Source: Candidatus Binatia bacterium (lineage in GTDB: Bacteria > Desulfobacterota > Binatia > UBA9968 > JAJDTQ01). Taken from it: a stretch of DNA of 60,558 bases. The notes beneath the pieces are model-generated. The model saw only the letters and a list, made by a program, of their open reading frames with translations. It was not told the origin of the DNA and searched no databases. Where the stretch lies: assembly GCA_022823055.1 (NCBI GenBank), contig JAJDXX010000050.1, forward strand, positions 1 to 60,558. The letters run 5' to 3'. The position numbers and the translations under genes are program-made. Within the stretch, counting starts at the first letter, position 1, and every line of letters begins with the position of its first letter. Of the stretch, positions 4,293 through 24,337 are shown in pieces.

Positions 4293-4555
4293 GTCATTCC
4301 CGCTTTCCAGGTTGTGTCAAAACCCCGCACGAATAGGGAATGGCACGGCCGCCCCGAATCGTCATTCCCGCGGAAGCGGGAATCCAGGGGTGGAGAGGGG
4401 CCAAACGGGCGTATTCCCCGCCTCGCCCCCGCCTGGATTCCCGCTTCCGCGGGAATGACGGTATGGGGGGTTGCTACCTATTCTCATCCGAGCGGGGTTT
4501 TGACACAGCCTGTTTCGCGGGCATGACTCATTGGGGTGTAGCGGGATTCCGTAAC
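4293..4555. repeat. Nested palindromic REP/MITE-like element, copy A
   Basis: Outer arms ...AGGTTGTGTCAAAAC / GTTTTGACACAGCCT... enclosing inverted GTCATTCCCGCGGAAGCGGGAATCCAGG / CCTGGATTCCCGCTTCCGCGGGAATGAC. Confidence 0.9.
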
Positions 4556-5686: not shown

Positions 5687-7120
5687 ATGCAGCCGGTAAC
5701 CGACATGCGGAGCTACCTTGAGCGGCTCGACGAGATGGGCGAGATCAAGCACATCGAGGGGGCGGACCTCGACACGGACGTGGGGGCGCTGACCGAGCAC
5801 ATGGGCGACATCGAGTCGCAGGCGCTGCTGTTCGACGGCTTCGCGGGGTTTCCCAAGGGTTTCCGCATCATCTCCAACCTGTTCCGCACCTGCCCGCGCT
5901 CGGCGGTGGCCATGGGTCTGCCCACGGACGTGAAGGGAGTGGACTTCCTTCACGCCTGGCGCAAGCGCGCGCTGGAGTTCCAGCCGCTGCCCTACGAGCA
6001 GGTGGAAGGCGGGCCGGTGTTCGACAACCAGATGGAAGAGGACGAGGTGGACCTGACCCGGTTCCCCACGCCCATGTGGCACGACCTCGACGGCGGGCGC
6101 TACATCGGCACCGGGTGCGGCATCATCACCAAGGACCCGGAGTCCGGCGGCATCAACATCGGCACCTACCGGGTGATGATCCAGGAGAAGAACAAGGTCT
6201 CGGTCAAGATGAACAAGGGCAAGCACGGGCGCCTCGCCATGGAGCGCGCCCACGCCCGCGGCGAGGCCCTGCCCGTGGCCATCACCCTGGGACAGGAGCC
6301 CAGCGTCATGCTGTCGTCGCAGATGCCGTTGCCGCCGTCGGTGAACGAGTACGAGTTCGCCGGCTGGATGCAGGGCAGCCCCATCCCGGTGGTGCGCGGC
6401 GCCGTCACCGGCCTGCCCATCCCGGCCAACGGCGAGGTGGTGCTGGAAGGGGAGATCCCGCCGCTGCCGCCGGAGCAGCTCCCCAAGGAGGGTCCCTTCG
6501 GCGAGTGGCCGGGCTATTACACCGAGGCCACCGAGGGCGACGTGCCGCTCATGACCGTCAAGCGGGTGTACTACCGGAACGACCCCATCATCCTGGGCGC
6601 CCCGCCGGTGCGGCCGCCCAACAGCTACCTGCCCATTCCCCTAGGCGCCATCACGCTGTGGGAGCAGTTGGAAAAGGCCGGCATCCCGGACGTGAAGGGG
6701 GTCTGGGGTTTCGTCTACGGCGGCCAGCCCGGCCCGTTCACGGTCATTTCCATCAAGCAGCGCTACACCGGCCACGCCAAGCAGGCGCTGCTGGTGGCCG
6801 CCGGCGCCCGCGCCGGCGCCTACGGCGGCAAGATGGTGGTAGTGGTGGACGACGACGTGGACATCACCAACCCCGGCGAGGTCATCTGGGCCATCTCCAC
6901 CCGCTGCGACCCCCGCGAGGGCATCGACATCGTGAAGAACGTGTGGGCCTCGGTGTGCGAGCCGGTCATCTCCCCCATGGACCGGGACACCAAGGGGTAC
7001 GTCACCGACCGCGTGCTCATCGACGCCTGCCGCCCGTACCAGTGGATCGACCGCTTCCCGCCGGTGAACGCGTTCGAGCCAAAGTACAAGCAGGACGTCG
7101 CCAAGAAGTGGGGAGTTTAG
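5687..7120 (+). CDS. UbiD-family (prFMN-dependent) decarboxylase
   Basis: DMRSYLERL, RFPTPMWHDLDGGRYIGT, NIGTYRV, EGPFGEWPGYY, VVVVDDDVDI, WAISTRCDP, IDAC. Confidence 0.93.
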   Translation: MQPVTDMRSYLERLDEMGEIKHIEGADLDTDVGALTEHMGDIESQALLFDGFAGFPKGFRIISNLFRTCPRSAVAMGLPTDVKGVDFLHAWRKRALEFQPLPYEQVEGGPVFDNQMEEDEVDLTRFPTPMWHDLDGGRYIGTGCGIITKDPESGGINIGTYRVMIQEKNKVSVKMNKGKHGRLAMERAHARGEALPVAITLGQEPSVMLSSQMPLPPSVNEYEFAGWMQGSPIPVVRGAVTGLPIPANGEVVLEGEIPPLPPEQLPKEGPFGEWPGYYTEATEGDVPLMTVKRVYYRNDPIILGAPPVRPPNSYLPIPLGAITLWEQLEKAGIPDVKGVWGFVYGGQPGPFTVISIKQRYTGHAKQALLVAAGARAGAYGGKMVVVVDDDVDITNPGEVIWAISTRCDPREGIDIVKNVWASVCEPVISPMDRDTKGYVTDRVLIDACRPYQWIDRFPPVNAFEPKYKQDVAKKWGV

Positions 7121-7141
7121 GAGGGCAATAACCCCCGAATC

Positions 7142-7439
7142 GTCATTCCCCGCGAAACAGGCTGTGTCAAAACACCATCTGAGAGAGGCGCCAACCCCCG
7201 GAATCGTCATTGATATGAAAATAAAATCTGGTTCAATGATTTCTGGTAGTTATGGAATCCCGCTACACCCCAATGAGTCATTCCCGCGGAAGCGGGAATC
7301 CAGGCGGGGTGGGGCCGGGCAATGAGGCCGCCACACCCCCACCCATGGATTCCCGCTTTCGCGGGAATGACGACTCGGGGCGTTGGCGCCAATTCTTGTT
7401 CGGGCAACGTCTTGACACGGCCTGTTCCGCGGGAATGAC
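7142..7439. repeat. Nested palindromic element, copy B (interrupted by AT-rich segment ~7211-7248)
   Basis: GTCATTCCCCGCGAAACAGGCTGTGTCAAAAC ... inner doublet ... GTCTTGACACGGCCTGTTCCGCGGGAATGAC. Confidence 0.9.
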
Positions 7440-7492
7440 GTATGCGGCGCGTCGGCGCCCCTGGAGGCCGGTCCCATGAAGGGATGGAGCGC

Positions 7493-8116
7493 ATGAAGGC
7501 TATTCTCTGCAGGACGTTGACGGCCGCGGCGCTGGCCTTGTCGGTCGTGCTGGCGCCGGCCACGGATGCGTCCGCCCACAAGTCCGTCCTCAAGGTCGAG
7601 TTCGCGGAACGGCGCGAGTTCGACGTCCTCATCGAGGACTTCACGCTAACCGACCAGAACGGCGAGCGCGTGCGGTTCGGGAACCTCCGGGGCAAGCCGG
7701 TGGTGATCAACTTCATGTACACGTCGTGCCCGGACATCTGCCCGCTGCTGACCGCGAGCCTCAAGATCCTGCGCGACCACATGAAGCCGGTGGAGGCCCG
7801 GGACATCCGTTTCCTGTCCATCACCACCGACCCCGAGGTGGACACGCCCAAGGTGCTCAAGGCCTACAGCCGGCGCCACAAGGCGGACGCGCCCAACTGG
7901 TCGTGGCTCACGGGCGACGCCCGCGAGCTGGCGCCGGTGTGGCAGGGCTTCGGCGTGAGCGTGGAGCGCATCGCCAAGGGACTCATCGAGCACACCACGC
8001 TGACGGTGGTGGCGGACGCCAAGGGGTACATGCGCTTCGCCTACTTCGGCTCCGCGCCGGATCCGGACGTGCTGCTCAAGGACCTGCGGGCGCTGGCCAA
8101 GGAGCCCGCCGCCTGA
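7493..8116 (+). CDS. SCO1/SenC-family copper-binding thioredoxin-fold protein
   Basis: Signal peptide, DFTLTDQNG, FMYTSCPDICP (CxxxC), DPEVDTP, conserved His in IEHT. Confidence 0.92.
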   Translation: MKAILCRTLTAAALALSVVLAPATDASAHKSVLKVEFAERREFDVLIEDFTLTDQNGERVRFGNLRGKPVVINFMYTSCPDICPLLTASLKILRDHMKPVEARDIRFLSITTDPEVDTPKVLKAYSRRHKADAPNWSWLTGDARELAPVWQGFGVSVERIAKGLIEHTTLTVVADAKGYMRFAYFGSAPDPDVLLKDLRALAKEPAA

Positions 8117-8220
8117 CTTCCTGCCTCCCCGATCCCTTCGAAGCGCATCCTCCACGGGAGGTGGTGGATCGGTTTGACTCACTACCTCCTGGTCGGCGTC
8201 GTTGACCCGCCTCGGGCGGC

Positions 8221-10401
8221 GTGCGATCGTGGAGGGAACACCTGCCGGAGCTGGACCGAGTCGTGGAATCGCTGTTGAACAGCATCGTCTGGGAGACCGT
8301 GGGGGTCTTTTACGAGGCCTCGGTGTATCTCCTCGCCGGGTTCTTCGTGGCGGGCCTCCTGCACGTCTACCTGCCGGCGGACCTCATCGCGCGCCACCTG
8401 GGCCGGAACGACGCGCGCTCGGTGGGGCTGGCGGCGCTGTTCGGCGCGCCGATTCCGCTATGCTCGTGCGGGGTCCTGCCGGCGGCGGCCTCGCTGCAGA
8501 AGCAGGGAGCCGGCCGCGCGCCGCTGGTGTCGTTCCTGATCTCGACTCCCGAGACCGGCGTCGACTCGGTGGCGCTGACCTACGGGCTCATGGGTCCGGT
8601 CATGGCCGTGGTCCGTCCGGTGGTGGCGGTGGTGACGGCGCTCGTGGCCGGCATCGCTTCCATCGGCGTGCGCGAGGATGAGACGGCGCCGGGTTCTTCG
8701 GCGGCGGCGCTTTCCGACGATGCGTGCGCGGACCCCGCTTGCGACGACGCGTCCGCGCCGGCCGCCGGCCGGGACTCATGCGACGAGACCCACGCGCCGG
8801 GCGCGGCGGCCTCGTCACCGGCGCATCGTTTCTTCCACTCCCTGGAGTACGGCTTCACCTCGGTGCTGGACGACATCGCGCTGTCGCTCCTCGTCGGCAT
8901 GCTGCTGACCGGGGTTCTCGCGGGGCTTCTGCCCGACAACTTCTTTGACGAGGTGCTCGGTTGGGGTTCGGGGATCATGCCGATGCTGGCCATGATCGTG
9001 CTCGGGCTGCCGTTGTACCTGTGCGCCAGCGCCTCCACTCCCGTTGCCGCCGCGCTCATGGTCAAGGGGCTCTCTCCGGGAGCGGCGCTCGTGTTCCTGC
9101 TTGTGGGTCCGGCCACCAACCTCGCCACCATGACCGTGGTGGGCCAGCTCCTGGGCCGCCGCCTTCTCGGCGTCTACCTTGGGGCCATCATCCTCGTGAG
9201 CCTGATGGCCGGCCTCCTGGTGGACGCGACCTTGGCCGACTCCATTCAGGTGGCGGGCTTCGGCGACCTGGGGCAGGACGTCGACGCGGTCTTCGTGCTC
9301 AAGGCGCTGTCGGCCGTGGGCCTGGTCCTGCTGTTGCTGCGAAGCTTCGTGCGCAAGGGCTATCGCACGGTCTGGCGCGACGCCGCGGAACAGCTTCTCC
9401 AGACCGGCCGTGCGCTCAAGGCCTTCCGCCCCGGCAACCTGTTGCGCGGCCCCGTCCTCGCGGCCGCCGTGGCCATCGCGGCGGTGGCGTCGGTCCCCGC
9501 GTTCACGCTCATCGTCGACCCCGGCCAGCGCGGCATCATCCAACGCTTCGGCCGGGTGGTGGCGGCGGATCTCGAGCCCGGCCTGTATTTCCATCTGCCG
9601 GCGCCCTTCGGCCGGGGCACCGCGGTGGACGTGGGGCTGATCCGCCAGGTCACGGTGGGCTTCCGGGGCGGCGTCAACGGCGCCCGGCGGGTTGTCGACG
9701 AACAGGCCTTCTACCTCACGGCGGACGGCAACGTCATCGACATCCGGGCGGTGGTGCAGTACCGCGTGCGCGACCCCGCGGTGTACGCGCTCGGCGTCGA
9801 GGAGACTCCCGCGGTGGTGCTGGGGCTGGCCCGGCGCGAGTTGGTGAGCCTCCTGAGCCGCAAGCCCATCGACCGGATCTACACCGTGGACCGGCGCAGC
9901 ACGGAGCGGGAGCTGCGGGACCGCCTGGCCCGGCGCCTCGCGTCCCTGGGCATCGGCAGCGAGATTTTGGACGTGCGGCTCCTGGACGTGCACGCGCCGG
10001 GCCGGGTCCACGACGCGTTCCGCGACGTGGCCAGCGCGCTGGAGGACCGCCAGCGCGACATCCACGTGGCCACCGGGGCGGCGACCCAGTCCACCACCGC
10101 GGCCACGGGCGAGGCCGAACGCATCACGCAACGGGCCGAGGGCCGCGCCGTGCGCGAGATGCGCCGGGCCGAGGGCCGCTCCGCGGCGTTCCGGGATACC
10201 GCGGCGGTGCATCGGACGAGCCCCGGGGTTACCGAGGCCCGCCTCTACCTTGAAACCCTCGAGCGGTCGCTGGAGCTGCCGCGGAAATACATCTACATGC
10301 CCGAAGCGGACGGCGGCGGCGACGTGGACCTCTGGATCGGCGCGCCGTCCTCGGACTTCCTGAACCTGGGCGCGCCCGAGCCCAGGAGCGGACAGAGATA
10401 G
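8221..10401 (+). CDS. ArsP/DUF318 (SO_0444-type) permease fused to C-terminal HflK-like SPFH/Band7 domain, copy 1
   Basis: GAPIPLCSCGVLP, TPETGVDS, GLPLYLCASASTP, GPATN permease motifs; then TM + VDPGQRGIIQRFGR, PGLYFHLP, LTADGNVIDI, VQYRVRDP, AFRDV, RLYLETLE, all in one frame. Start uncertain (GTG 8221 or 8263). Confidence 0.88.
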   Translation: MRSWREHLPELDRVVESLLNSIVWETVGVFYEASVYLLAGFFVAGLLHVYLPADLIARHLGRNDARSVGLAALFGAPIPLCSCGVLPAAASLQKQGAGRAPLVSFLISTPETGVDSVALTYGLMGPVMAVVRPVVAVVTALVAGIASIGVREDETAPGSSAAALSDDACADPACDDASAPAAGRDSCDETHAPGAAASSPAHRFFHSLEYGFTSVLDDIALSLLVGMLLTGVLAGLLPDNFFDEVLGWGSGIMPMLAMIVLGLPLYLCASASTPVAAALMVKGLSPGAALVFLLVGPATNLATMTVVGQLLGRRLLGVYLGAIILVSLMAGLLVDATLADSIQVAGFGDLGQDVDAVFVLKALSAVGLVLLLLRSFVRKGYRTVWRDAAEQLLQTGRALKAFRPGNLLRGPVLAAAVAIAAVASVPAFTLIVDPGQRGIIQRFGRVVAADLEPGLYFHLPAPFGRGTAVDVGLIRQVTVGFRGGVNGARRVVDEQAFYLTADGNVIDIRAVVQYRVRDPAVYALGVEETPAVVLGLARRELVSLLSRKPIDRIYTVDRRSTERELRDRLARRLASLGIGSEILDVRLLDVHAPGRVHDAFRDVASALEDRQRDIHVATGAATQSTTAATGEAERITQRAEGRAVREMRRAEGRSAAFRDTAAVHRTSPGVTEARLYLETLERSLELPRKYIYMPEADGGGDVDLWIGAPSSDFLNLGAPEPRSGQR

Positions 10402-10414
10402 CGGAGAGTTCACC

Positions 10415-11575
10415 ATGGGCAAACCCATCGTCGCGGTGCTCGTCCTGGCGCTGCTCCTCTTCGGCGCCGCCACCTCGTTCGTGGTGGTGGACGAGAAGAG
10501 CCACGCGGTCATCACCCAGTTCGGGAAGCCCGTGTCGGTGCTGAGCGAGGCGGGCCTCTACCTCAAGCTGCCGGTGCCGTTCCAGCGGGCGAACCTCCTG
10601 GACAAGCGCATCCTGATCACCAACACGCGGGAGACGGAGCTGCTCACCGCGGACAAAAAGAACGTCCTGGTCTCCACCTACATCTCCTGGAAGATCGCCG
10701 ACCCGGTGCGTTACCTGGCGGCGCTGCGCACCCGGGACTTCGCGGAGAACCGGCTCGCCGCGCTGGTGCAGTCCGAGTTGGGCAGCGCGCTCGGCGGCCG
10801 GCCCTTCGGCACGATCCTGGGAACTTCCGGCAACGGTGCCAGCCTGGCGGAGTTGGAAGGTTCGGTAGAGCGGGCGGTGGCCGGGGTGACGCGGGAGGAC
10901 CTCGGCATCGAGGTGGTGAGCCTCGGCGTGACGCGCCTCATCTTCCCGCGACAGAACCTCGACAGTGTGTTCGCGCGCATGCGCGCCGAGCGCGCGCGCA
11001 TCGCCCGGGGGTTTCGCTCGGAGGGGCGGGCCGAGGCGCAGAAGATCGCCGCCCGCGCCGAGAAGGAACGCGCGCGCATCATCGCCGAGGCCGAGGCCAA
11101 GGCGGCCATGCTGCGGGGGCGCGGCGAGGCCGAGGCGGCGCGCATCTACGCCGAAGCCTACCAGGGGCACGCCGACTTCTATCGGTTCCTGCGCACGCTG
11201 GAAGCCTACAAGAAGGTGCTGAACGAGAAGACCACCCTGGTCCTGCCGGCGGATTCGCCGTTCCTGGAGATCCTGACCTCCAGGATTCCCGGCGCGCCGG
11301 CGGCGCCCGGGCGGAGCGGCGGCGGTGCCGCGCCCGCCGATGCCGCCGCCGCGAGCCCGGTGGCGCGGAAACCCGGGCCCGCCAATACCGCCGCGCCTCC
11401 CGAGGCCCGGAACCCCGCGCCCGCGAGTCCGGCGGACGCGAACTCCGTGTCCGCGAAGCCCGTTGCCGCAAACCCGGCGCCCGGTGGTCGGATCGCCGAT
11501 GGTCCGGTGCGGGACCCGCTGGAGCGGGATTCGGCTCCCGCGCCGCCGCCCGCGCGGCGGAGGGTGTTCCGGTGA
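10415..11575 (+). CDS. HflC-like SPFH protein with long Pro/Ala-rich C-terminal tail
   Basis: N-terminal TM, ITQFGKPV, LLTADKKNV, WKIADP, RMRAERARIA..RSEG, FYRFLRTLEAY, LPADSPF. Confidence 0.9.
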   Translation: MGKPIVAVLVLALLLFGAATSFVVVDEKSHAVITQFGKPVSVLSEAGLYLKLPVPFQRANLLDKRILITNTRETELLTADKKNVLVSTYISWKIADPVRYLAALRTRDFAENRLAALVQSELGSALGGRPFGTILGTSGNGASLAELEGSVERAVAGVTREDLGIEVVSLGVTRLIFPRQNLDSVFARMRAERARIARGFRSEGRAEAQKIAARAEKERARIIAEAEAKAAMLRGRGEAEAARIYAEAYQGHADFYRFLRTLEAYKKVLNEKTTLVLPADSPFLEILTSRIPGAPAAPGRSGGGAAPADAAAASPVARKPGPANTAAPPEARNPAPASPADANSVSAKPVAANPAPGGRIADGPVRDPLERDSAPAPPPARRRVFR

Positions 11576-12483
11576 CGGGACGCGGGCGACGGTACCCTGT
11601 GCTCCTGGGCTGTGTCGGCGTGCTCGCCGGCTGGCTCGCCCTCGGCATCTACAACGTCGAATCGGACGAGAGCGCGGTGGCCTACTTCCTCGGCAAGGCC
11701 GTGGGCCGCGACGTGCTCCCGGGCATCCACTGGAACGCGCCGTGGCCGTTGGGGCAGGTGGTGGTGGCGCGCACGGCCACGAACTTCCTCATGCCGGTGG
11801 AGCATGGGGCGGCGGCAGGCAGCGCGGCGGGCGCGTCCGAGTCCCTCTGGCTGCTGGGTGACACCAACGTCATCGTCGGCCGGCTGGGCATCCAGTACAG
11901 CATCGGCAGCCTGACGCGCTTCGAGGTGTCGCACGAGGACCCGCGGGAGCTGCTGCGCCGGGCCGGGCGCCGGATCGTGACCCGGTTCCTCGCCGGCGAG
12001 AGCGTGGACGCCGCCCTCACCACCCGCCGGAACGAGCTCCTGGACGCGGTGCAGCGGCAGGTGCAGTCGATACTCGATGATCACGGTTCTGGAATCGAGA
12101 TCCAGTCGGTGAACGTCGAGGCGCTGGCGCCGCCGGAGCAGGGAGGTGTGCGGCAGGCCTTCCAGGAGGTGCAGAGCGCGCTGGCGGACAAGGAGCGGGT
12201 GGTGGACGAGGCGCGCGCCGACCGCGCCCAGATCCTCGCGGAAGCCGAGGGGGAGTCGGAGCATCGCGTGACCCAGGCCGAGGCCGCGCGCCACCGGCGC
12301 GTGGAGATCGCCAAGGGCGAAGGCGAGCGTTTCCTCCGCCTCGCGCGGGAGCACCGCAAGACCCCCGGGCTCACCGAGGAACGGCTCTACCTGGAAACCA
12401 TCGAGGAGATCCTGCCGCGCATGGACACCTACGTGGTCCAGTCCGGCCCGGACGGCAAGGTCAACCTGCGCGTGGTCCGGTGA
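11572..12483 (+). CDS. HflK-like SPFH protein
   Basis: GTGA overlap with the previous stop; PGIHWNAPWP, LLGDTNVI, VRQAFQEV, AKGEGERF, RLYLETIEEIL. Confidence 0.87.
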   Translation: MTGRGRRYPVLLGCVGVLAGWLALGIYNVESDESAVAYFLGKAVGRDVLPGIHWNAPWPLGQVVVARTATNFLMPVEHGAAAGSAAGASESLWLLGDTNVIVGRLGIQYSIGSLTRFEVSHEDPRELLRRAGRRIVTRFLAGESVDAALTTRRNELLDAVQRQVQSILDDHGSGIEIQSVNVEALAPPEQGGVRQAFQEVQSALADKERVVDEARADRAQILAEAEGESEHRVTQAEAARHRRVEIAKGEGERFLRLAREHRKTPGLTEERLYLETIEEILPRMDTYVVQSGPDGKVNLRVVR

Positions 12484-12507
12484 GAACGAAATGTCTTGGC
12501 GTAGCGC

Positions 12508-12542
12508 TTGACAAAAGAGAAAGCCATGAGAATATATTCTCA
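12508..12542 (+). promoter_or_regulatory. Promoter (-35 TTGACA) with perfect palindrome TGAGAATATATTCTCA over the -10 region; putative Fur/Zur-family operator
   Basis: TTGACA 12508-12513; 16-bp palindrome 12527-12542 resembling Fur-family TGA(T/G)AAT-n-ATT(A/C)TCA; directly upstream of a Znu-type operon. Confidence 0.7.
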
Positions 12543-12570
12543 ATTGCTTTTTGGTCAGGAGGATTGTGCC

Positions 12571-13671
12571 ATGAGGAGAACTGTGAGGCTGTTCCTTGCC
12601 ATTCTTGCGGGCTGTTGGATCGGCGCGGTAGCGGTCCCCGCGAGCGGGGAGCCGTTGAACGTCGTTACCAGCGTGATCCCGGTGGCGTATATCGTCGAAG
12701 AGTTGGGTGGCGAGCGAGTCGAGGTACATGCGCTGGTGCCGCCCGGGGCCAGCCCCCACACGTTCGAGCCCGTGCCGAGCGACCTGCGAACGCTTGCCGG
12801 GGCGCGCGTTTTCGTCGCCATCGGGGGAGGCTTTGACGGGTGGTCCGACAGGCTGCTCGGAGCGGCCCCGAAGGGAATCGAGGCCATGCACCTGATCGAG
12901 GCGCCGAACCTGAACCCCGTGGAAGGAGAGGACGATCACCACGGTGAAGAGAAGGCTGCCAAGGAAGAAGATCACCACGGTGAGGAGAAGGCTGCGAAGA
13001 AGGAAGAGGACCATCACGGCGAGGAGAAGGTAGCCAAGAAGGAAGAGGACCACCACGGTGAGGAGAAGGCTGCCAAGAAGGAGGAGGATCACCACGGCGA
13101 GGAGAAGGTAGCCGCAAAGGAAGAGGATCACCACGGTGAGGAGGAGTTCAACCCGCATTTCTGGCTGGACCCGATCCGCGTGAGAGACGTGCTCGTGCCG
13201 GTGCTGGTACAGGGGCTGATGGCGGCGGATCCCGCCGGCAAGGATCACTACGAGAAGCGCCGGAAGGACTTTCACCAGCGGTTGACGGCACTGGACCAGG
13301 AGATCAGAACGGAGCTCGGCAAGGCGAAGACGCGCAAGTACATCGCCTTTCACGCGGCGTGGCCCTACTTCGCCGAACGCTACGGCCTTGAGAAGGTGGC
13401 GGTGGTGCAGGAGTTCGGCGGCGAGGAGCCGACTCCCAGGGAAGTCGCCACTTTGGTGCGGGACGCCCGCGCCGCGGGGGTCGGGGCCATCCTGGTGGAG
13501 CCGCAACTGAATCCCCGAGTGGCGCAGACCATCGCCGCGGAGTTCGGCGCCGGAACGGTGGTGGTGGATCCGGTGGGCGACCCGGGCGATCCGGCGCGCG
13601 ACAGCTACGAGGATCTGATGCGGTTCAATGCCCGCGCCTTCGGACAGGCGCTGCAGGGAAAACGCAATTGA
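12571..13671 (+). CDS. znuA: Zn/Mn ABC transporter substrate-binding protein (cluster A-I) with tandem His-rich repeats
   Basis: Signal peptide after RBS AGGAGG; PPGASPHTFEP, NPHFWLDP, FHAAWPYF, VEPQ. Confidence 0.9.
   Translation: MRRTVRLFLAILAGCWIGAVAVPASGEPLNVVTSVIPVAYIVEELGGERVEVHALVPPGASPHTFEPVPSDLRTLAGARVFVAIGGGFDGWSDRLLGAAPKGIEAMHLIEAPNLNPVEGEDDHHGEEKAAKEEDHHGEEKAAKKEEDHHGEEKVAKKEEDHHGEEKAAKKEEDHHGEEKVAAKEEDHHGEEEFNPHFWLDPIRVRDVLVPVLVQGLMAADPAGKDHYEKRRKDFHQRLTALDQEIRTELGKAKTRKYIAFHAAWPYFAERYGLEKVAVVQEFGGEEPTPREVATLVRDARAAGVGAILVEPQLNPRVAQTIAAEFGAGTVVVDPVGDPGDPARDSYEDLMRFNARAFGQALQGKRN
12928..13146 (+). repeat. Intragenic tandem repeat, six units of (E/D)DHHGEE(K-A/V-A-K-K), 36-39 nt each
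   Basis: Visible in DNA and translation; units differ at synonymous positions. Confidence 0.95.
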
Positions 13672-14453
13672 ACCACGACAACGTGGTAGTCGGCCTGAGC
13701 GGCGTGACGGTGGAGCTCGATGGCCGTTGCGTGCTGCACGACATCAACTTCGACGTGCACGCGGGCGGGTTCGTGGGCATCGTCGGACCCAACGGAGCCG
13801 GCAAGACGACGCTGATGCGCACGATCATGGGGCTCATGCCGGTGGTGAGCGGCCGGGTGGAGGTGTTCGGCTCCCCACCCGGCGGGAAGGGCTCCGACGC
13901 CATCGGTTACGTGCCGCAACGCCAGAGCATCTCTCCCGAGTTTCCGGCGACGGTCGGCGACGTGGTGATGATGGGGAGGCTGCGGCAACTCGGCGCATTC
14001 GGGTTCCCGCGCAAGAAAGACTGGGAGCGGGTGGACCGAAGCCTCGAGCTGGTGGGCATGCAGGACCGCAGGGACCGTCCCGTGGGGCGGATGTCCGGAG
14101 GCGAGCAGCGCCGGGTCATGCTGGCCCAGGCACTGTGCGCCAGCACGCGGTTGCTGGTGCTCGACGAGCCCACGGTGGGCCTCGATCTTCCCGCCGAGCA
14201 CGAGTTCTATGCGCTGCTCCGAAGACTCATACAGGACTTGACCTTGACCATCGTGGCGGTGTCCCATGACCTCGTGGCCATGGCCGGGCAGTCCGATGAG
14301 CTGATCTGCATCAACCAACGCATGCACATTCACGGGAACGCCGAGGAGGTGATCCACAGCCACGCCATCCGCGAGGCCTACCGCTGCGAGTTCGACTTCC
14401 TGGGCGGCGAGCTTGCCCATCACGAAACGCCGGGCCATCAACATGACGGGTGA
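13668..14453 (+). CDS. znuC: Metal ABC transporter ATP-binding protein
   Basis: GPNGAGKTT, IGYVPQ, MSGGEQRRV, LDEPT, His-rich C-terminus; TTGA overlap with upstream gene. Confidence 0.9.
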   Translation: MNHDNVVVGLSGVTVELDGRCVLHDINFDVHAGGFVGIVGPNGAGKTTLMRTIMGLMPVVSGRVEVFGSPPGGKGSDAIGYVPQRQSISPEFPATVGDVVMMGRLRQLGAFGFPRKKDWERVDRSLELVGMQDRRDRPVGRMSGGEQRRVMLAQALCASTRLLVLDEPTVGLDLPAEHEFYALLRRLIQDLTLTIVAVSHDLVAMAGQSDELICINQRMHIHGNAEEVIHSHAIREAYRCEFDFLGGELAHHETPGHQHDG

Positions 14454-14509
14454 CACGCCGGCGGCGCTCCGACACCTCGGCTGACGGCCTGTCATACGGA
14501 AACTCTCTG

Positions 14510-15343
14510 ATGTTCGATTTCGCCTTCATGCAACGCGCGCTGGCCGCGGCGGTCCTGGTGGGTGTGCTATGCGGGATCCTGGGCTTTTTCGTGGTGCTGC
14601 GGCGTCTGGCCTTCATCGGCGTCGGGATCTCCCATTCGGCCATCGGGGGCGTTGCCATCGGCATCCTGGCGGGATGGAATCCGCTCCTGACCGGCGCCGT
14701 CTTCGCCATCGCCGTGGCGCTGGGAATCGCCCTCGTGAGCCGGAGCGACAACATCAGCGAGGACACGGTCATCGGCGTGTTCTTCTCCGGGTCCATGGCC
14801 TTGGGCGTCGTGCTCTTCAGCATGAAGAGCGGCTACCAGCAGGATCTCTTCAGCTACCTCTTCGGCAACGTGCTGGCCATCTCCACCGTCGAGCTCGTGG
14901 CCCTCGCCTGCGCGAGCGCGGTGATCATGGTGATCATGCTGTTGACGTTCAAGGAGCACATGCTGATCTCGTTCGATGAAGAGGTGGCGGCGGCCTACGG
15001 CCACAAGGTCCTGGCGATGAACGTGCTGCTGCTGGTGGTGCTGGCCCTCACCGTGGTGATCGGCGTAAGGCTGGTGGGTCTGCTGCTGATCCAGGCCCTG
15101 CTGGTGGTGCCCGCCGCGATCGCGACCCTGTGGGCGTTGAACTTCCGCTGGCAGGTGTTGCTGGCGACCTTGATCGGAGCGCTTTCAGGCGTGGTGGGGC
15201 TCGTGCTGGCGTATCAATTCGACCTCGCTGCCGGCGGCTCCATCGTGATGGTGGCGGTAGCGCTCTTTTTCATTACCCTTCTGGCTCACTTCATCCACCG
15301 TCAGTTCCGGACTCCGCCGTCTGTCTCCCTGGATCAACCGTAG
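14510..15343 (+). CDS. znuB: Metal ABC transporter permease
   Basis: FMQRAL, VVLRRLAFIGVGISHSA, YLFGNVL, SFDEEVA, VGLLLIQALLVVPAA. Confidence 0.9.
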   Translation: MFDFAFMQRALAAAVLVGVLCGILGFFVVLRRLAFIGVGISHSAIGGVAIGILAGWNPLLTGAVFAIAVALGIALVSRSDNISEDTVIGVFFSGSMALGVVLFSMKSGYQQDLFSYLFGNVLAISTVELVALACASAVIMVIMLLTFKEHMLISFDEEVAAAYGHKVLAMNVLLLVVLALTVVIGVRLVGLLLIQALLVVPAAIATLWALNFRWQVLLATLIGALSGVVGLVLAYQFDLAAGGSIVMVAVALFFITLLAHFIHRQFRTPPSVSLDQP

Positions 15344-15389
15344 GAACCGAGGAAGACACCGAGCCCCATTGCGGTCGAGCATGGTGATC

Positions 15390-16349
15390 ATGAATCGAAC
15401 CATGGTTGCGGCGGTTCTTCTTGCCTGTTCGTTCATCGTGCCGTCGCAGGCCCGCGCCGCGGATCGGGTCGTCGCGACATTCAAGCCGGTGCACTCACTG
15501 GTGAGCGCGGTGATGGCCGGGGTGGGTGAACCTTACCTGCTCATGCGCGGTTCCGAGTCGCCGCACACCTACCGCATGCGCCCTTCCGACGCCGGTGTCA
15601 TCGGCAAGGCCCGCGTCATCTTCATGATCGGTGAACGCACCGAGACGACGCTGGTGGGCCCCATCCGCAAGCTCGGCGGCAAGGTCCGCGTGGTGGAGCT
15701 GGCCGAAGCGCCCGCGCTGGTTCGCAGGCCGCTACGCATGGGTGGCGCTTTCGAAGACGACGGTCACGGGCATTCCCATGGTCATGGTCACAGTCACGGC
15801 CGCGGCCGCGGGCTTGGAAAGGACGACGCGTTCGACATGCACGTTTGGCTGGACCCGATAAACGCCGGGTGGATGACGCTGGCGATCGCCCGTGCCCTGT
15901 CCGAGACCGATCCGGCCAACGCCGCGAAGTACGACGCCAACGCGGATGCGCTGATCACCCGGCTGGAAGCCTTTCGGGTGGAGTTGGACACGGAGCTGGC
16001 GCCGGTGCGCAGGAAGCCCTTCATCGTGTTCCACGACGCTTATCAGTATTTCGAGAAGCGCTTCGGGCTGACCGCCGTGGGCTCGGCCGTGGTCACCGCC
16101 GGCCGGGCGCCGGGCGTCCGGCGCGTCCGTGAGCTGCGCCGCAAGGTGCGCGAGCTGGGCCTGGTATGCGTGCTCGCCGAGCCTCGCTACGATCTCCGTT
16201 TCGTGAGGCTCATCACGGAAGGCACCGACGCACGCGCCGGCACCGTCGACCCCACCGGCGCGACGATCAAACCCGGCCCCGATATGTACTTCAGCCTGCT
16301 GCGGAACATGGCCGCGTCCTTCAAGGCCTGCCTGGCACCCTCGGGCTAG
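15390..16349 (+). CDS. Second Zn ABC transporter substrate-binding protein (proteobacterial ZnuA-like)
   Basis: VVATFKPVHSLVSAVM, ESPHTYRMRPSD, HGHSHGHGHSH loop, DMHVWLDP, FHDAYQYFE; start among 15381/15390/15402. Confidence 0.9.
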   Translation: MNRTMVAAVLLACSFIVPSQARAADRVVATFKPVHSLVSAVMAGVGEPYLLMRGSESPHTYRMRPSDAGVIGKARVIFMIGERTETTLVGPIRKLGGKVRVVELAEAPALVRRPLRMGGAFEDDGHGHSHGHGHSHGRGRGLGKDDAFDMHVWLDPINAGWMTLAIARALSETDPANAAKYDANADALITRLEAFRVELDTELAPVRRKPFIVFHDAYQYFEKRFGLTAVGSAVVTAGRAPGVRRVRELRRKVRELGLVCVLAEPRYDLRFVRLITEGTDARAGTVDPTGATIKPGPDMYFSLLRNMAASFKACLAPSG

Positions 16350-16363
16350 GACGTGCCCAATGC

Positions 16364-19638: not shown

Positions 19639-20928
19639 TCAGTTCCCTCCGTGTTGCCCGCGGCCCGGGCCGTCGTTGAGCGTCTTCTCCACCATCGACC
19701 TCAGATTCGCCTGCTGGGCGGCGCTGCGGCGGCGGGAACCGCCGTGACGATGGGAAAAGATCGAGGGCGTGTCGAATATGAGCGACCGGGGATTGGCCTC
19801 CCTCGTGTGGTCACGCTCGGCTCGCGGGCTGTGGAAGCGGCCCTCGATCAACGGCTTGTCGGCCGTGACGCTCTCCAGGGCATGCACGTTCAGCGGCATG
19901 GTCGATCTCGACAGCCGCTCGCCGGGAGCGGCGGGTGAAGGCGGGGTGTGCGCCGCGACCGCCGTCGGGGGGACTCCCGCGGCGCCGTCGATCATGTTGA
20001 TGTCGATGTTCGACGCCTCGCCCGGGTTGACGACCGACAGGCTCGCCTCGGCGAAGATCGTGCGCATCCGTTGCCAGTAGCGTGTGATGGCAACCTGGTT
20101 CGGGTTTTTCCTGTATTCGGCCAGCAGGTCCGTGAAGACCTTCGCGCTGCTGCGCGCCTGGACGAGCCGCGTCCGGGCGCTCGCCCTGGCGTCCGTCACC
20201 AGCGCTTCGGCCTGCCCCTTGCTGCGCGCAAGCAGTTGCTCTCTCTTGCGATTCGCCACGCTCGCGACTTCTTCCCGCTCCGCGATGGCGTCGTTGACGT
20301 CCCGGAACGCCTGGAGCGTCTCCTGGATCGGGCGCACGTCGACGATGTTGAGCGAGACGATCTCCAGACCGAAATCCAGCGCTTCGAGGCGCTTGACCAC
20401 GTCTTCGAGCAGATGTTGTTGAATGACGTCGCGATTCGAGGTGAAGATCAGGTCGATGAAGTTCTGCCCGAGGATATTGATCAGTTCCTCGCGAACGAAC
20501 GCGGTGAGCAGCGAGACGGGGTCGGCGGACGCGAACAGGTACGCCCTCAGGTTGTCGATCTTGTACTGGATGGCGACGTCGGCCTCGATGAGGTTGGTGT
20601 CTCCGGTCAGGATGGTGAAGTTCGCCTGATTGCCTTTCGTGCTCGACACCTCATGCCCGAGGATCCGTTTGACCTTTCGAATATGCATCCGCTCGACGAG
20701 CGGAACGGCGTAGCCCAGCCCCGGACCGACCTGCGCATCGACCACTTTCCCGAAACGGGTGCGTACGCCCTGCTCCTCTTTCTTGACGACGTAGAAGCCG
20801 GTGAGCAGGTAGCCGAAAACGGCGATGGCGACAAGGATCCAGAGGATCGTCTTGTAGCGCCCCTCGAGGAAGTCGAAGGCGGCGTAAATGGCCCGCGTGC
20901 TCGGAGGCAGGGAGTGTGCTTCGCTCAT
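19639..20928 (-). CDS. HflK-like SPFH protein (copy 2) with ~110-aa C-terminal extension
   Basis: TM, GFYVVKKEEQGVRTRFGK, LTGDTNLI, IQYKI, AFRDVNDA, EYRKNP. Confidence 0.88.
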   Translation of the reverse strand: MSEAHSLPPSTRAIYAAFDFLEGRYKTILWILVAIAVFGYLLTGFYVVKKEEQGVRTRFGKVVDAQVGPGLGYAVPLVERMHIRKVKRILGHEVSSTKGNQANFTILTGDTNLIEADVAIQYKIDNLRAYLFASADPVSLLTAFVREELINILGQNFIDLIFTSNRDVIQQHLLEDVVKRLEALDFGLEIVSLNIVDVRPIQETLQAFRDVNDAIAEREEVASVANRKREQLLARSKGQAEALVTDARASARTRLVQARSSAKVFTDLLAEYRKNPNQVAITRYWQRMRTIFAEASLSVVNPGEASNIDINMIDGAAGVPPTAVAAHTPPSPAAPGERLSRSTMPLNVHALESVTADKPLIEGRFHSPRAERDHTREANPRSLIFDTPSIFSHRHGGSRRRSAAQQANLRSMVEKTLNDGPGRGQHGGN

Positions 20929-20942
20929 CGGATGAATCCGCC

Positions 20943-21836
20943 CTACCGAGGTATTTCCTTGCTGTCGAGATACTTGAACAGCTCGTTGTCCGCGGGCAGC
21001 ATGAGGGTCGTGTTCCCGTCGATGATCCGGTCATAGCTGTCGAGCGCACGGAGGAATTTGTAGAACTCCGGGTCCTCCTCGTAGGCCTTGCCGAGCAGCG
21101 CCATCGCCTCGGCTTCCGCCTTTCCGAGAATGGCGGTGGCCTCGGCGTGGGCTTCGGCGATGATCTTCTCGTGCTCGTTGATGGCCCGGGCCTCGATGCG
21201 GATCGCCATCTCCTCGCCCTCGCTGCGATAGCGCGCGGCGATGCGGGCGCGTTCGGAGATCATCCGTTGGATCACGCTCGGCCGGTTCGACACCGGCAAG
21301 GTGTACTCGACGATTCCCGTCCGCAGCACGTCGATGCCGTAGTCCTTCTTCGCGACCGGAGCGATGAGCTCCTGAATCTTGTTGGCGGCCGCGGTCAGAT
21401 TCTCGTGCTCCAACCCCAGGCTGATGAAGGCGTCCTGGGCCTCGTTGCTGATGACGATGCCGCTGCTCGACATGTAGAGGTCCTTGAGTCGCTGGATGGC
21501 GTTCTGGCCGGTCCGGATCGCCTCGACGTAGAGGATGGGGTCCCGGACGCGCCACAGCAGATATCCGTCGACATGAACGCTCTTCTGGTCCTCCGTGATC
21601 AGTTCCTGTGTCAGCCCGGTCATGGCGTGAATGCGCCGGTCCACCTTGTATATCCTGGATATGGGCCGGGGCCATTTCAGGTGGAGTCCGGGTTGCCTGA
21701 CGGGAGGCGATATCTTCCCGAAGTGGGTCAACACGCCCTGCTGCGTCTCGTCGACGATGTAGAAGGAATCGTACGCTATGACGAGCAGGATGATCGCGGC
21801 AATGGATGCGGCGATTTTCCTTGATCTCGAGGTCAT
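20943..21836 (-). CDS. HflC-like SPFH protein (copy 2)
   Basis: SFYIVDETQQGVLTHFGK, LITEDQKSV, WRVRDP, RMISERARIAARYRSEG, DPEFYKFLRALDSY, LFKYL. Confidence 0.92.
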   Translation of the reverse strand: MTSRSRKIAASIAAIILLVIAYDSFYIVDETQQGVLTHFGKISPPVRQPGLHLKWPRPISRIYKVDRRIHAMTGLTQELITEDQKSVHVDGYLLWRVRDPILYVEAIRTGQNAIQRLKDLYMSSSGIVISNEAQDAFISLGLEHENLTAAANKIQELIAPVAKKDYGIDVLRTGIVEYTLPVSNRPSVIQRMISERARIAARYRSEGEEMAIRIEARAINEHEKIIAEAHAEATAILGKAEAEAMALLGKAYEEDPEFYKFLRALDSYDRIIDGNTTLMLPADNELFKYLDSKEIPR

Positions 21837-24337
21837 TTCGCTTCTCCCCGCTTCTCCCCCGATTTCTCCGTCTGCTCAGGGCTCGCGGTCCTTTTGCCTT
21901 GGGCGCCGGCGAGTTTTCGGGGTTCTTCCGGCTTTCCCTTGGCGCTGCTCTGTTCGCCATGGTTCGGAGGGTTGGCCGGGCTCTTGGCGGATTCTTCGGG
22001 TCTTTTCTCCCCGGCAGCCCCGTTGCGATGGTTCATGCCGTCGGCCGCTCCGTTCTTCCCGTGCGCCGGACGCATGTGTCCGCTACCCGCCGGCGATTTC
22101 CTCTTCCACAGCGCGACCTTTCCGAGGCTGTCCTGGTTGGGAACGATGATCTTCGGATTGCGGGAAAGCGCGATTTCCAGCTTCTCGCGCCACAGCATGT
22201 TCCGAAGCACGTCCGGCGAGACCTGCATGGCCTTCGCCACCCTCCGGATCGCATCGGCTTCCGCGCCCGATGTCGCCACCCGCGAATACGCCCGGCCGTC
22301 GGCCTGCTTCACCTCGTAGTCGGCATTGCCGTGCGCCTGGGGAATCATCGACACCAGGAGCCGCTGCGCGTTGACGATGATCCTCTCCTTGTCCTCCTGC
22401 GCGGTGGACACCTCGCGGAATGCGCTTGTGGTCTCGGCCACGGGGCGGATCTCCGACAGGCTCACCTTGACCAGCTCGACACTCTCGAACACCGAGGGTC
22501 CCGCGTCCTGTGCTGGATCCTTCCCCGTGAACAAGCCGCCGACGTGCCCTTCGAGGGTCCCGCGATGGACGGTGAGCAACTGCTCCAGGGGTCTGGCGGA
22601 TACGAAGGAACGCACATGGTCCCGGACAGCGTCCCGGATGAGGCTCGGCGCGTCGATGATCCGGTAGTGGTAGGTGTACGGGTCTTTCACTCGATATTGC
22701 ACGTTGACGGTGAGGGAGACGAGGTTCAGGTCGCCGGCCACGAATTCGCGTGATTCCCCGCCCATCATGGACTTCACTTCCCGGACCGGCCATTTGTCGA
22801 TCCGGGCGAAGGGCGGGGGAGCGAGGTAGTGCAGCCCCGGCTGCAGATCCTTCCAGTAGACCTTGCCGAAAAGGCGGCCGTAGCCGACCGAGCCCGGGGG
22901 CACGACCGCGAAACCGTTGGCGAGGTAGACGGCGACGATCAGGGCGAGGACCATCATGCCCAGAGGCGTCTTGGGGGAGATGGCGCCCAGCGCGGGGCGG
23001 CCCCGGCTCAGTCGCGTCCACGTCCGCACCAAGGGTTCGGACATGTTGCGGACGTTTTTCGTCAAATCCGACCAGCCGGTTCGCAGGGCGCCGGCGCGGA
23101 ACCGCCAGACGACCAGGGAGATGAAGGCGAAGGTGCTCACGTACTGGAAGAACAGGATGTTCGGCGAAGTCGAGGCGCTCAGGTTCAAGGGCAGCGTCAG
23201 GGCGGCGGCGGCCAACAGGACGTCCACGAGGATGGCCACGAGGACGGTCACCACGATGACCACGGTGACGTAGATGGACGCGAAGCGCGTGCCGAACTGG
23301 TGCATGATGACCGCGATGGTTCCCGAATTCGTGGCCGGCCCCGTCATGAGAAAGATCAGCGCCGCTCCCGGACTGAAGCCCTTGGCCACCAGCGCGGCGG
23401 CGATGGGCGTGCTTGCGGAGGCGCAAATGTAAAGCGGGACGCCGATCAGGACCATGATCGGGTAGGCCGCCCACTGGGCGTATTCGTTGTCCATCAGGGT
23501 GTCGGGAATCGCCAGATAGAGCAGTCCTCCCACGGCGACGCCGAAGAGCAGCGAGAACAGGATGTCGTCGGCGATCTCCACGAAACCGTGGTGAAAGATG
23601 TGCCTGACGATGGTCTTGAAGCTGGGCAGGTTGTATCCCGCGGGGAGTTCGACGTCTGGAGTGTCCTGCGGCTCTTCCTCGGCCGCCATTTCCTCGCGAT
23701 AGAACTCAGGCTTGACCCAGAAGGTGATCCTCCGGTTGGCAACCTTCGCCAGGAGCGTCCTGAGGCCGTAGCCCATGGCAATCTTCAGTTGTGAAGGGCT
23801 GATGCAGCAGTCGTCTTCGCTTGGAATGAGATGTTCGTGCGGGCCGTGATCGTGGTCATGGTCGTGATCGTGGCTGCCGTCGTGCTCTTCCTTCAGAATA
23901 CCGCCGTCGCCTCTGATGAGACCGATGCAGAAAATGCCGGCCACGACCGCGGTGATGAAGCTGATGACGGGCCGGACGATCGCCGCCACCCATCCGAAGA
24001 AGGCGTTGGTGACGAGAATCGAATCCGCTCCCGTTTCGGGAGCGGTGATCAGGAAAGACATGCAGGAAGAGCGGGAGGCACCCTTCCGCCGCATCTCGGT
24101 GACCACCGGCACCACCGAGCAACTGCAAAGCGGCACGGGCACGCCGACGGCCGCGCTGACGCTGACCGACTTCAGACTGTCGTCACGAAGCCACCGGAAA
24201 ACCGCCTGGCGGGATATGAATACGTGAAACAGTCCCGAGAGGAACAGCCCGAGCAGGAGCATGGGCGACAACAGAAGCAGCGACATCCACAGAAAGTGGA
24301 AGAAATCGACCAGCAGGCTCCACAATTGAACAGACAT
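21833..24337 (-). CDS. ArsP/DUF318 permease fused to HflK-like SPFH domain, copy 2
   Basis: GVPVPLCSCSVVP, APETGADS, His-rich loop, GVPLYICASASTP, GPATN; then TM + VVPPGSVGYGRLFGK, PGLHY, AGDLNLV, VQYRVKDP, AFREV; ATGA overlap with the hflC-like gene. Confidence 0.9.
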   Translation of the reverse strand: MSVQLWSLLVDFFHFLWMSLLLLSPMLLLGLFLSGLFHVFISRQAVFRWLRDDSLKSVSVSAAVGVPVPLCSCSVVPVVTEMRRKGASRSSCMSFLITAPETGADSILVTNAFFGWVAAIVRPVISFITAVVAGIFCIGLIRGDGGILKEEHDGSHDHDHDHDHGPHEHLIPSEDDCCISPSQLKIAMGYGLRTLLAKVANRRITFWVKPEFYREEMAAEEEPQDTPDVELPAGYNLPSFKTIVRHIFHHGFVEIADDILFSLLFGVAVGGLLYLAIPDTLMDNEYAQWAAYPIMVLIGVPLYICASASTPIAAALVAKGFSPGAALIFLMTGPATNSGTIAVIMHQFGTRFASIYVTVVIVVTVLVAILVDVLLAAAALTLPLNLSASTSPNILFFQYVSTFAFISLVVWRFRAGALRTGWSDLTKNVRNMSEPLVRTWTRLSRGRPALGAISPKTPLGMMVLALIVAVYLANGFAVVPPGSVGYGRLFGKVYWKDLQPGLHYLAPPPFARIDKWPVREVKSMMGGESREFVAGDLNLVSLTVNVQYRVKDPYTYHYRIIDAPSLIRDAVRDHVRSFVSARPLEQLLTVHRGTLEGHVGGLFTGKDPAQDAGPSVFESVELVKVSLSEIRPVAETTSAFREVSTAQEDKERIIVNAQRLLVSMIPQAHGNADYEVKQADGRAYSRVATSGAEADAIRRVAKAMQVSPDVLRNMLWREKLEIALSRNPKIIVPNQDSLGKVALWKRKSPAGSGHMRPAHGKNGAADGMNHRNGAAGEKRPEESAKSPANPPNHGEQSSAKGKPEEPRKLAGAQGKRTASPEQTEKSGEKRGEAK

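Follow-up and report, generated by a model that had tools for sequence, protein, structure and literature searches.

The DNA analyzed here (the window) is the 60,558-nucleotide (nt) contig JAJDXX010000050.1 of the assembly GCA_022823055.1 of a Candidatus Binatia bacterium, and it carries two copies of a three-gene module in which a metal permease is fused to an HflK-like SPFH domain. The fusion open reading frame (ORF) of copy 1 (8221..10401, +) encodes 726 amino acids (aa) and scored for two Pfam families in a single frame, ArsP_1 at residues 28-334 (149.9 bits) and Band_7 at residues 431-619 (68.3 bits). This agrees with a first-pass annotation of the window, made from the DNA letters without database searches, which had placed the permease motifs and an SPFH domain in this one frame. 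An upstream GTG at 8221 is a possible alternative start of the gene. The GTG at 8263 is the likelier start because orthologues begin at MESLL, and the residue numbers of this fusion (C67, H577, etc.) are counted from 8263. The permease part (residues 1-365; 8263..9357, +) was assigned to the SO_0444 family of Cu/Zn permeases by NF033936, and it was also matched by ArsP_1 and modeled with AlphaFold2 (AF2). It is followed by a linker helix rich in Lys and Arg (residues 366-395) and an HflK-type anchor helix (396-414), which together occupy 9358..9504 (+) and correspond to the AF2 helices 367-387 and 396-414. The remainder (9505..10401, +) encodes the HflK-like SPFH domain with a long coiled coil and C-terminal strands.

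The fusion gene is followed on the + strand by a gene for an HflC-like protein with an N-terminal anchor helix (10415..11575; 386 aa) and by a gene for a free HflK-like protein in which 7 residues precede the anchor helix (11572..12483; 303 aa). The 13-bp gap and the GTGA overlap reported at the first pass were both read directly in the DNA. The fusion ends with TAG at 10399-10401, the HflC-like gene begins with the ATG at 10415, preceded by GGAGAG, and the HflC-like and HflK-like genes overlap at 11572-11575. The flanking SCO and Znu-type genes named in the same annotation were recovered as Pfam matches. A SCO1/SenC-type periplasmic thiol/copper chaperone with a CxxxC motif (CPDIC) is encoded upstream (7442..8116, +; SCO1-SenC, 92 bits; alternative start near 7493), and genes for ZnuA with a His-rich repeat loop, ZnuC, ZnuB, and a second ZnuA are located downstream (12508..16349, +; ZnuA, ABC_tran, ABC-3, and ZnuA). 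The distance between the HflK-like gene and the first ZnuA gene is 25 bp, on the same strand.

The second copy announced by the first-pass annotation is located at 24337-19639 of the - strand. In its fusion (21833..24337, -; 834 aa), an SO_0444-type permease (ArsP_1, 150.9 bits) whose central loop is His rich is joined to an HflK-like SPFH domain (Band_7, 53.1 bits). The HflC-like partner (20943..21836, -; 297 aa) and the free HflK-like partner, which has a long C-terminal tail (19639..20928, -; 429 aa), are encoded next. Downstream of them are genes for a Peripla_BP_6 binding protein (18447-19634, -; 155.5 bits) and for a 162-aa membrane protein that matched no Pfam family (17962-18450, -). 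The fusions of copy 1 and copy 2 share 31% identity over 729 columns and are therefore either old paralogues or the result of separate acquisitions. Loci resembling copy 1 and copy 2 are referred to below as type 1 and type 2, respectively.

The junction between permease and SPFH domain was also recovered from other sequencing runs, which bears out the earlier judgment that the fusion is unlikely to be an artifact. Run X6, which belongs to a different study, yielded a contig of 2179 nt that spans positions 9299-11465 and crosses the fusion junction. Contigs of run X2 match 8000-9404 and 9375-9732. Run X20, an RNA library, yielded contigs for 8815-9450 and 9431-9883 that are about 92% alike, indicating presence in the library, not transcription. 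Cover was absent from 8 of the 30 bins in X20, and none of the contigs listed for any run extends over the whole stretch; no conclusion is based on these gaps. The runs containing the stretch are labeled sponge metagenome, and the three that were compared come from two studies. An artifact of assembly or gene calling was considered and can be dismissed with near certainty, given the two diverged copies, the fused state of 116 of 150 cluster representatives, the fusions in 29 species genomes, and the bridging contigs.

Among the homologues listed for the copy 1 fusion, all 120 have both PF01145 and PF03773. These proteins bear automatic names that refer to one part only, "SO_0444 family Cu/Zn efflux transporter" at NCBI and "HflK protein" at JGI. 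The best 150 representatives of 50%-identity clusters in a BLASTP search consisted of 116 proteins with both parts, 32 with the permease only, and 2 with the SPFH part only; 102 of the two-part representatives are nearer to copy 1, and 14 are nearer to copy 2. The corresponding ESM Atlas cluster, with 1191 members, contains ArsP_1 in 100% and Band_7 in 99%. Among 120 SPFH-only proteins listed, those with at least 49% identity are all on contigs of 8 kb or less, and these short relatives may be cut fusions; the proteins listed after them are at most 37% identical.

A scan of one genome per species retained 80 loci, 29 with fusions and 51 with unfused SO_0444 genes. The first-pass annotation had proposed a survey of domain architectures and gene neighborhoods, and this survey revealed a common fusion and a constant triad. 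The order fusion, HflC-like, HflK-like was found in 27 of 27 fusion loci, the other 2 of the 29 ending at a contig edge. No SPFH gene was detected within the flanks examined at any of the 51 unfused loci. By record title, the fusion carriers belong to Binatia (the closest relative, at 81%), Deltaproteobacteria, Myxococcota, Eiseniibacteriota, Spirochaetales, Gemmatimonadota, Holophagales/Acidobacteria, Thermoanaerobaculia, Alpha- and Gammaproteobacteria, and Latescibacterota. Two carriers are cultured Bradyrhizobium species, B. erythrophlei and B. australiense (loci L016 and L017). The spread of the fusion is patchy, and the module is therefore regarded as an accessory system.

At the alphaproteobacterial fusion loci, a further HflC-like gene precedes the fusion by about 1-2 kb. 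It was found in the two Bradyrhizobium species (L016:4851-5744 and L017:4846-5646), in a metagenome-assembled genome (MAG) of Acetobacteraceae (L018:575-1402), and in another MAG (L024:4972-5826). In L024, also a MAG, two matching pieces in different frames were obtained both for the fused SPFH part and for the HflC-like gene (8255-10182), which points to either decay or sequencing error. Because of these split genes, alignments A6 and A7 and the tree described below exclude L024.

The first-pass label of the permease, ArsP/DUF318, holds at the level of the Pfam family, since ArsP_1 matches both copies, but was refined to the SO_0444 family. The scores for NF033936 (SO_0444 family Cu/Zn efflux transporter; cut-off, 300 bits) were 359.6 bits for copy 1 and 301.0 bits for copy 2, so that copy 2 barely clears the equivalog cut-off. 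The motifs PLCSC, YLCASASTP, and GPATN are present in the translation of copy 1, and PLCSC is present in both copies. All 87 of the fusion sequences aligned share residues C67, C69, E97, Y252, C254, and P283 without exception. The permease consists of two homologous halves, recognized as an internal repeat in the sequence. In the AF2 model, a long first helix is followed by two short-helix pairs, a further helix, a loop, a repeat of this pattern, and one more helix. The conserved motifs lie at the breaks of the two short-helix pairs in each half (PLCSC and STPETG in the first, CASASTP and GPATN in the second), and the central loop of copy 1, of about 50 residues, is disordered, acidic, and rich in Cys and His.

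The permease alone (residues 1-395) was modeled with a predicted local distance difference test (pLDDT) value of 87.2 and a predicted template modeling score (pTM) of 0.86. A Foldseek search of this model against the PDB returned no match at an E value of ≤0.001 (281 at ≤10), and the permease fold is therefore without a solved relative in that library. The top query TM-scores were 0.34 for NaS1, 0.29 for the TRAP transporter SiaQM, and 0.27 for CNT. Naming a known fold family for the permease was accordingly dropped at a best query TM-score of 0.34.

The substrates of the permease are likely Zn and/or Cu. According to the available text of the fitness study, SO_0444 mutants of Shewanella oneidensis are sensitive to ZnSO4 and CuCl2, and SO_0444 was annotated as a Cu/Zn efflux protein because it is needed for growth under ZnSO4 or CuCl2 stress (PMC3219624). 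The CSC motif is described as the most conserved feature of the SO_0444 family, with selenocysteine variants noted, in the accessible part of a preprint by Haft (10.1101/2022.07.06.499078). A single in-frame TGA was observed in several unfused SO_0444-type matches from the phylum of the window (genomes G148, G096, G059, G058, and G006), which fits the selenocysteine variants mentioned in that preprint.

All six SPFH proteins of the two copies exceed the Band_7 (PF01145) gathering score of 23.6 bits, with 40.3 to 71.7 bits. Against the HflK equivalog model TIGR01933 (cut-off, 159.4 bits), the fused proteins scored 141.7 bits (copy 1) and 120.1 bits (copy 2) and the free HflK-like proteins scored 143.9 bits (copy 1) and 147.9 bits (copy 2), all under the cut-off. 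The AF2 model of the whole copy 1 fusion, built from an 87-row alignment, had a pLDDT of 86.1 and a pTM of 0.65. Beyond the permease, the Lys/Arg-rich helix and the anchor helix lead into the SPFH domain, which is followed by a helix of about 70 residues and then by the C-terminal strands. The fused domain thus holds the feature set of solved HflK: one anchor helix, the SPFH domain, a long coiled coil, and C-terminal strands. In a phmmer search against the PDB, HflK was the sole sequence match, and residues 394-679 of the query aligned with residues 76-344 of Escherichia coli HflK (6.2e-20). The best Foldseek matches are the HflK chains of HflK/C cages, 7vhq_E (1.3e-12; target TM-score, 0.68), 9cz2, 9paw, and 7wi3, and lower fold matches of the fusion include stomatin, prohibitin, erlin, QmcA, and flotillin.

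A His pair (HAPxxVH) is located at the junction of the SPFH domain and the coiled coil in type 1 fused domains, with H577 in 77 of 79 and H583 in 73 of 79 sequences. E. coli HflK has R and K at these positions. In type 2 fused domains, the first His is found in 6 of 8 sequences and the second in 0 of 8.

The linker contains on average 4.16 Lys/Arg versus 1.66 Asp/Glu residues over 86 sequences. In both free partners, Lys and Arg lie ahead of a single N-terminal helix detected by hydropathy, as expected for proteins with the N terminus inside and the SPFH domain outside. The simplest reading of these charges is that the linker would be cytoplasmic and all three SPFH domains periplasmic, like that of HflK. 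If the halves of the permease are inverted, the Lys/Arg tally of the 86 sequences mildly favors a cytoplasmic central loop, but no claim is made on the side of this loop, which would depend on whether the short-helix pairs span the membrane.

Both HflC-like proteins pass the HflC equivalog model TIGR01932 (cut-off, 134.4 bits), with 190.0 bits for copy 1 and 166.1 bits for copy 2. The housekeeping hflKC pair, for which the first-pass annotation had suggested a check, was found on another contig of the same genome (C88; the window is C84), with 290.9 bits for hflK and 249.9 bits for hflC. The statement that the window has neither ftsH nor hflX was also correct. The sole Peptidase_M41 (FtsH) match of the genome is on contig C106, and an HflX match above the cut-off is on contig C62. 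No protease gene is present in either module.

A maximum-likelihood tree, built quickly from 90 SPFH sequences, places every HflC-like row on the side of the housekeeping HflC (support, 100). The free HflK-like rows cluster in a single group (94), adjacent to the HflK of the housekeeping pair (98), and the fused K domains split into type 1 and type 2 groups. The type 1/type 2 split and a similar branching are common to all three SPFH lineages. These parallel trees are read as suggesting that the three genes have long been inherited together. The starred branches of the tree would be compatible with a single origin of the fusion.

The pairing of the fused domain with the HflC-like protein was examined by complex prediction, with self-made alignments of 29 rows per partner. 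The fused K domain (residues 385-697) and the HflC-like protein (residues 1-300) scored 0.64, and the best of three controls scored 0.00. In a benchmark, 58 of 80 solved complexes and 2 of 110 mismatched pairs reach this mark. At least 94% of contacts are common to the runs, and the pLDDT of the partners is at least 81. The predicted interface runs along the SPFH domains and coiled coils, with the two proteins side by side.

Genes related to metal handling recur beside the triad. The order ZnuA-ZnuC-ZnuB follows the triad in 8 of 23 type 1 loci, and a Peripla_BP_6 binding protein gene is next in 6 of 6 type 2 loci. Pfam matches among the 74 downstream ORFs were Peripla_BP_6 (6), ABC_tran (7), ZnuA (5), ABC-3 (5), and Zip (2). 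Those among the 53 upstream ORFs were Fe/Mn superoxide dismutase (4), formamidase (4), Band_7 (3), and TonB-dependent receptor (2). These counts are lower bounds because the crude gene caller miscalls ORFs in high-GC DNA. A SCO orthologue (81% identity) occupies the same position in L001, and SCO was not seen upstream at the other fusion loci examined. No ars genes were seen adjoining copy 1 or copy 2.

The membrane protein of about 160 aa is 39-64% identical in five aligned type 2 loci (L022:12701-13183, L023:12778-13263, L026:13190-13663, L028:12906-13391, and L049:12655-13143). It is always encoded after the binding protein gene, and modules of the copy 2 type therefore look like five-gene units.

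Further features were noted at the two modules. A Pro/Ala-rich tail of about 85 residues closes the copy 1 HflC-like protein (11315-11575). Tails of 120-200 residues are present on the free HflK-like proteins of the copy 2 type (total length, 429-507 aa; window positions 19639-20000, -). In a dome of the HflK/C type, the C termini are located at the apex. The first ZnuA gene of copy 1 contains 5.5 tandem copies of a 39-nt unit (12934-13143), encoding a His/Glu-rich peptide (EEDHHGEEKAAKK-like) at the position of the metal-binding loop.

The region 24338-24587 upstream of copy 2, common to a divergent Na/Pi cotransporter gene, is AT rich within a window of 65% GC. Within it are a promoter-like site at 24393-24422 and a perfect AT-rich palindrome, ATCAATATTGAT, which was absent from all 85 loci compared and is a possible operator without backing from other loci. 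Promoter- and terminator-like sites over positions 7000-25000 were no more numerous than in shuffled sequences, and Rfam gave no match in the window.

A 24-nt palindromic element (GTCATTCCCGCGnAnGCGGGAATC) has 14 intergenic occurrences in the window versus 0 expected, at 4361-4459, 7277-7371, 30980-31218, 40796-40891, 44450-44548, 46993-47016, and 50406-50505. The occurrences are mostly inverted pairs about 75 bp apart, one of them just 5' of the SCO gene, and the element looks like a repeat of the repetitive extragenic palindromic or miniature inverted-repeat transposable element (REP/MITE) type. Between 25804 and 30961, four long + strand ORFs (740, 256, 295, and 450 aa) had no Pfam match at an E value of ≤0.01. 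Long ORFs are present on the opposite strand too, and the + strand ORFs are candidate genes only.

The reading preferred here, with a probability of about 0.55, is that the module encodes a dedicated HflK/C-type assembly that includes the metal permease as a covalent subunit and acts in Zn/Cu homeostasis. The heavy-metal permease (SO_0444/ArsP_1) would end in the positively charged cytoplasmic linker helix, which would lead through the single anchor helix into the periplasmic HflK-like SPFH/coiled-coil domain. The fused SPFH domain would pair side by side with the HflC-like protein of the operon, as HflK does with HflC. The free HflK-like protein would take the remaining K-type positions, and each ring or cage would therefore contain fewer permeases than K positions. 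Such an assembly would fence the permeases into one membrane patch beneath a periplasmic dome and would thereby control their activity, lateral contacts, or lifetime. Its partners in metal handling would be ZnuABC and SCO at copy 1 and the binding protein and the small membrane protein at copy 2. The domain content, the conserved gene order, the codiversification of the three genes, the separate housekeeping hflKC, the fold, and the predicted K:C interface are results of the analysis, and from them we infer cage formation, stoichiometry, the periplasmic orientation, the metal and its direction, and any FtsH role. The proposal of the first-pass annotation, that the three proteins belong together and build a transporter into an HflK/C-type assembly, gains support short of proof from the gene order at 27 of 27 loci, the 0 of 51 unfused loci with an SPFH gene, the parallel trees, and the K:C interface.

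Several observations weigh against this assembly. The score of the predicted K:C interface may reflect memory or likeness only, because the HflK/HflC complex is already solved. The K-type proteins are under the HflK cut-off, and canonical HflK behavior therefore cannot be assumed. When the DNA preceding the 29 fusions was scanned for AT-rich palindromes, no site common to these loci emerged. The full-length fusion was found in 2 of 201 sampled genomes of the window's phylum, the window's own genome included. The neighbors are mostly of the uptake type (ZnuABC, ZIP, and binding proteins), whereas the efflux name comes from fitness data in one organism. Such neighbors appear to sit awkwardly with a simple efflux or detoxification reading.

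The same proteins could instead serve turnover of the permease by FtsH. The dedicated K and C proteins would bind the single FtsH of the cell, the cage would place this protease beside the permease tethered to it, and regulated proteolysis would set the amount of permease, for example with metal supply. The best fold matches are solved HflK/C cages enclosing FtsH (7wi3 and 9cz2), the ftsH gene is single in the genome, and neither module includes a gene for a protease. The HflC-like proteins exceed the HflC equivalog cut-off, and in the available portions of their papers the authors of work on Pseudomonas aeruginosa see zinc-induced HflK/C-family genes as FtsH modulators (PMC9431628 and PMC11761036). 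Coupling to FtsH is nonetheless rather unlikely, since a canonical hflKC pair with far higher family scores is already present, the K-type proteins of the module are under the HflK cut-off, and a permease covalently tethered to a protease cage would always be a substrate if no further control existed. It is improbable that the SPFH domain is a plain regulatory or oligomerization domain that multimerizes or gates the permease, in the manner of stomatin, with no large closed cage and with the two partners as modulators. The whole cage-forming set is retained (SPFH domain, long coiled coil, and C-terminal strands), and two more full-length SPFH partners in 27 of 27 loci go beyond the needs of a simple gate. 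A plain domain would nevertheless accord with the noncovalent binding of channels by SPFH proteins, the aquaporin 1-stomatin entry 9zd2_E being among the fold matches. It would also accord with the subtle phenotypes, the only ones mentioned in the accessible text, that followed deletion of the three-SPFH operon PA2439-PA2437 in P. aeruginosa under the conditions used there (PMC13086221).

A periplasmic metal chamber, the main idea of the first-pass annotation, is a further, improbable alternative. The dome would enclose a small volume over the permeases, where exported or incoming metal would be retained and then passed to partners such as ZnuA or SCO, bypassing the bulk periplasm. The conserved His pair of the type 1 fused domains (H577, 77/79; H583, 73/79) could serve such a chamber, and the SPFH domains are probably periplasmic, with genes for periplasmic metal-binding proteins flanking the triad. 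The second His is, however, missing from type 2 (0/8), a closed cage would exclude proteins of the size of ZnuA too, and SCO is upstream only in the window and in its closest relative, L001. In its fullest form, also improbable, a closed dome over several covalent permeases would act as a sealed inner-membrane nanocompartment from which Zn or Cu is handed to ZnuA-type proteins, SCO, or a corralled FtsH. Were a chamber real, it would provide an SPFH cage with a gene-fused client whose purpose is compartmentalized metal handling.

Returning to the dedicated HflK/C-type assembly with a covalent permease, its possible value lies in the client. The role of SPFH cages (HflK/C, stomatin, prohibitin, and flotillin) toward the membrane proteins they enclose is still debated, partly because the binding of clients is weak and their numbers are unknown. 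In the present modules the client is defined, since a metal permease is tied to one cage subunit, and two dedicated subunits are kept with it across many phyla. Expression of the three genes should therefore yield a cage with a known client for cryo-electron microscopy and transport assays. For metal biology, the module would add a widespread, unstudied component to Zn/Cu homeostasis and might explain HflK/C-family paralogues in zinc starvation regulons. If the assembly does not form, the finding shrinks to an unusual domain fusion with automatic annotation.

SPFH/HflKC assemblies and the SO_0444 permease are the known parts of this system; their joining and the two dedicated partners are apparently unstudied. 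No paper on a permease-SPFH fusion was found in a literature search that fell short of most subscription journals and of supplements. The words "permease" and "transporter" are absent from the portions available of a 2009 survey of prokaryotic SPFH proteins and of a 2026 study of P. aeruginosa SPFH proteins. The literature therefore agrees with the first-pass statement that no characterized example is known, but the architecture itself is common and already stands in databases under automatic names.

The permease has two known points of comparison. ArsP, the organoarsenical efflux permease of Campylobacter (TCDB ArsP family), shares the Pfam family ArsP_1. It has a vicinal-cysteine motif in a membrane helix. 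The window copies differ from ArsP in that NCBIfam assigns them to the Cu/Zn subfamily and no ars genes adjoin them. SO_0444 of S. oneidensis MR-1 is closer, since the permeases of both copies are over the NF033936 cut-off and keep the CSC motif. SO_0444 is, in the available description, a stand-alone protein whose gene adjoins that of a ZntR-like regulator (PMC3219624), whereas the window permeases are fused to SPFH domains and are encoded beside uptake-type genes.

On the SPFH side, QmcA-YbbJ (8Z5G) and stomatin-aquaporin 1 (9ZD2), both among the fold matches, resemble the module as SPFH rings with membrane proteins or operon partners. As far as their available descriptions go, their clients are bound noncovalently, and the partner is an NfeD protein instead of SPFH paralogues. 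Stomatin-type proteins are, in the accessible text of one source, usually held to face the cytoplasm (PMC2636767). The likeness to E. coli HflK/HflC (7VHP, 7WI3, and 9CZ1/9CZ2) is more extensive. From the anchor helix to the C-terminal part, HflK can be aligned with both the fused domain and the free K-like protein, an HflC-type gene is next, the best fold matches are to these cages, and a side-by-side K:C interface is predicted. The modules of the window differ from the E. coli system in having three SPFH genes, not two, and in one K-type protein a permease of nine or more helices replaces the cytoplasmic N-terminal tail of HflK. They are also unlinked to hflX or hfq and are additional to a canonical hflKC pair.

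Three genes of P. aeruginosa, PA2439-PA2438-PA2437 (PaFlo5-7), were compared by their published description, not by sequence. In a second homologue search, started from the gammaproteobacterial fusion L026, both domains were present in 119 of the 120 proteins listed, none of which was named Pseudomonas. Among the matches listed for 201 genomes of the order around the genome of L055, no fused form was present, and the five loci examined in that order are K-C pairs, not triads. The published passages available on PaFlo5-7 (PMC13086221 among them) mention no permease fusion. According to the parts of the sources at hand, PaFlo5-7 are, like the window triad, three HflK/HflC-family genes in one operon beside a Zn/Cu transporter gene, in their case within the locus of the P-type ATPase Zn/Cu importer HmtA (PA2435). 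Their distribution is patchy, suggesting horizontal transfer (PMC13086221). The accessible texts report that PA2439-PA2437 were induced 9- to 14-fold in a znuA mutant (PMC4542158, Table 2), that the protein levels increased under Zn depletion (PMC11761036), and that Zur shifts the PA2439 promoter (10.1101/2021.05.28.446167). By analogy, PA2439-PA2437 may be regarded as the nearest described parallel to the triad of the window.

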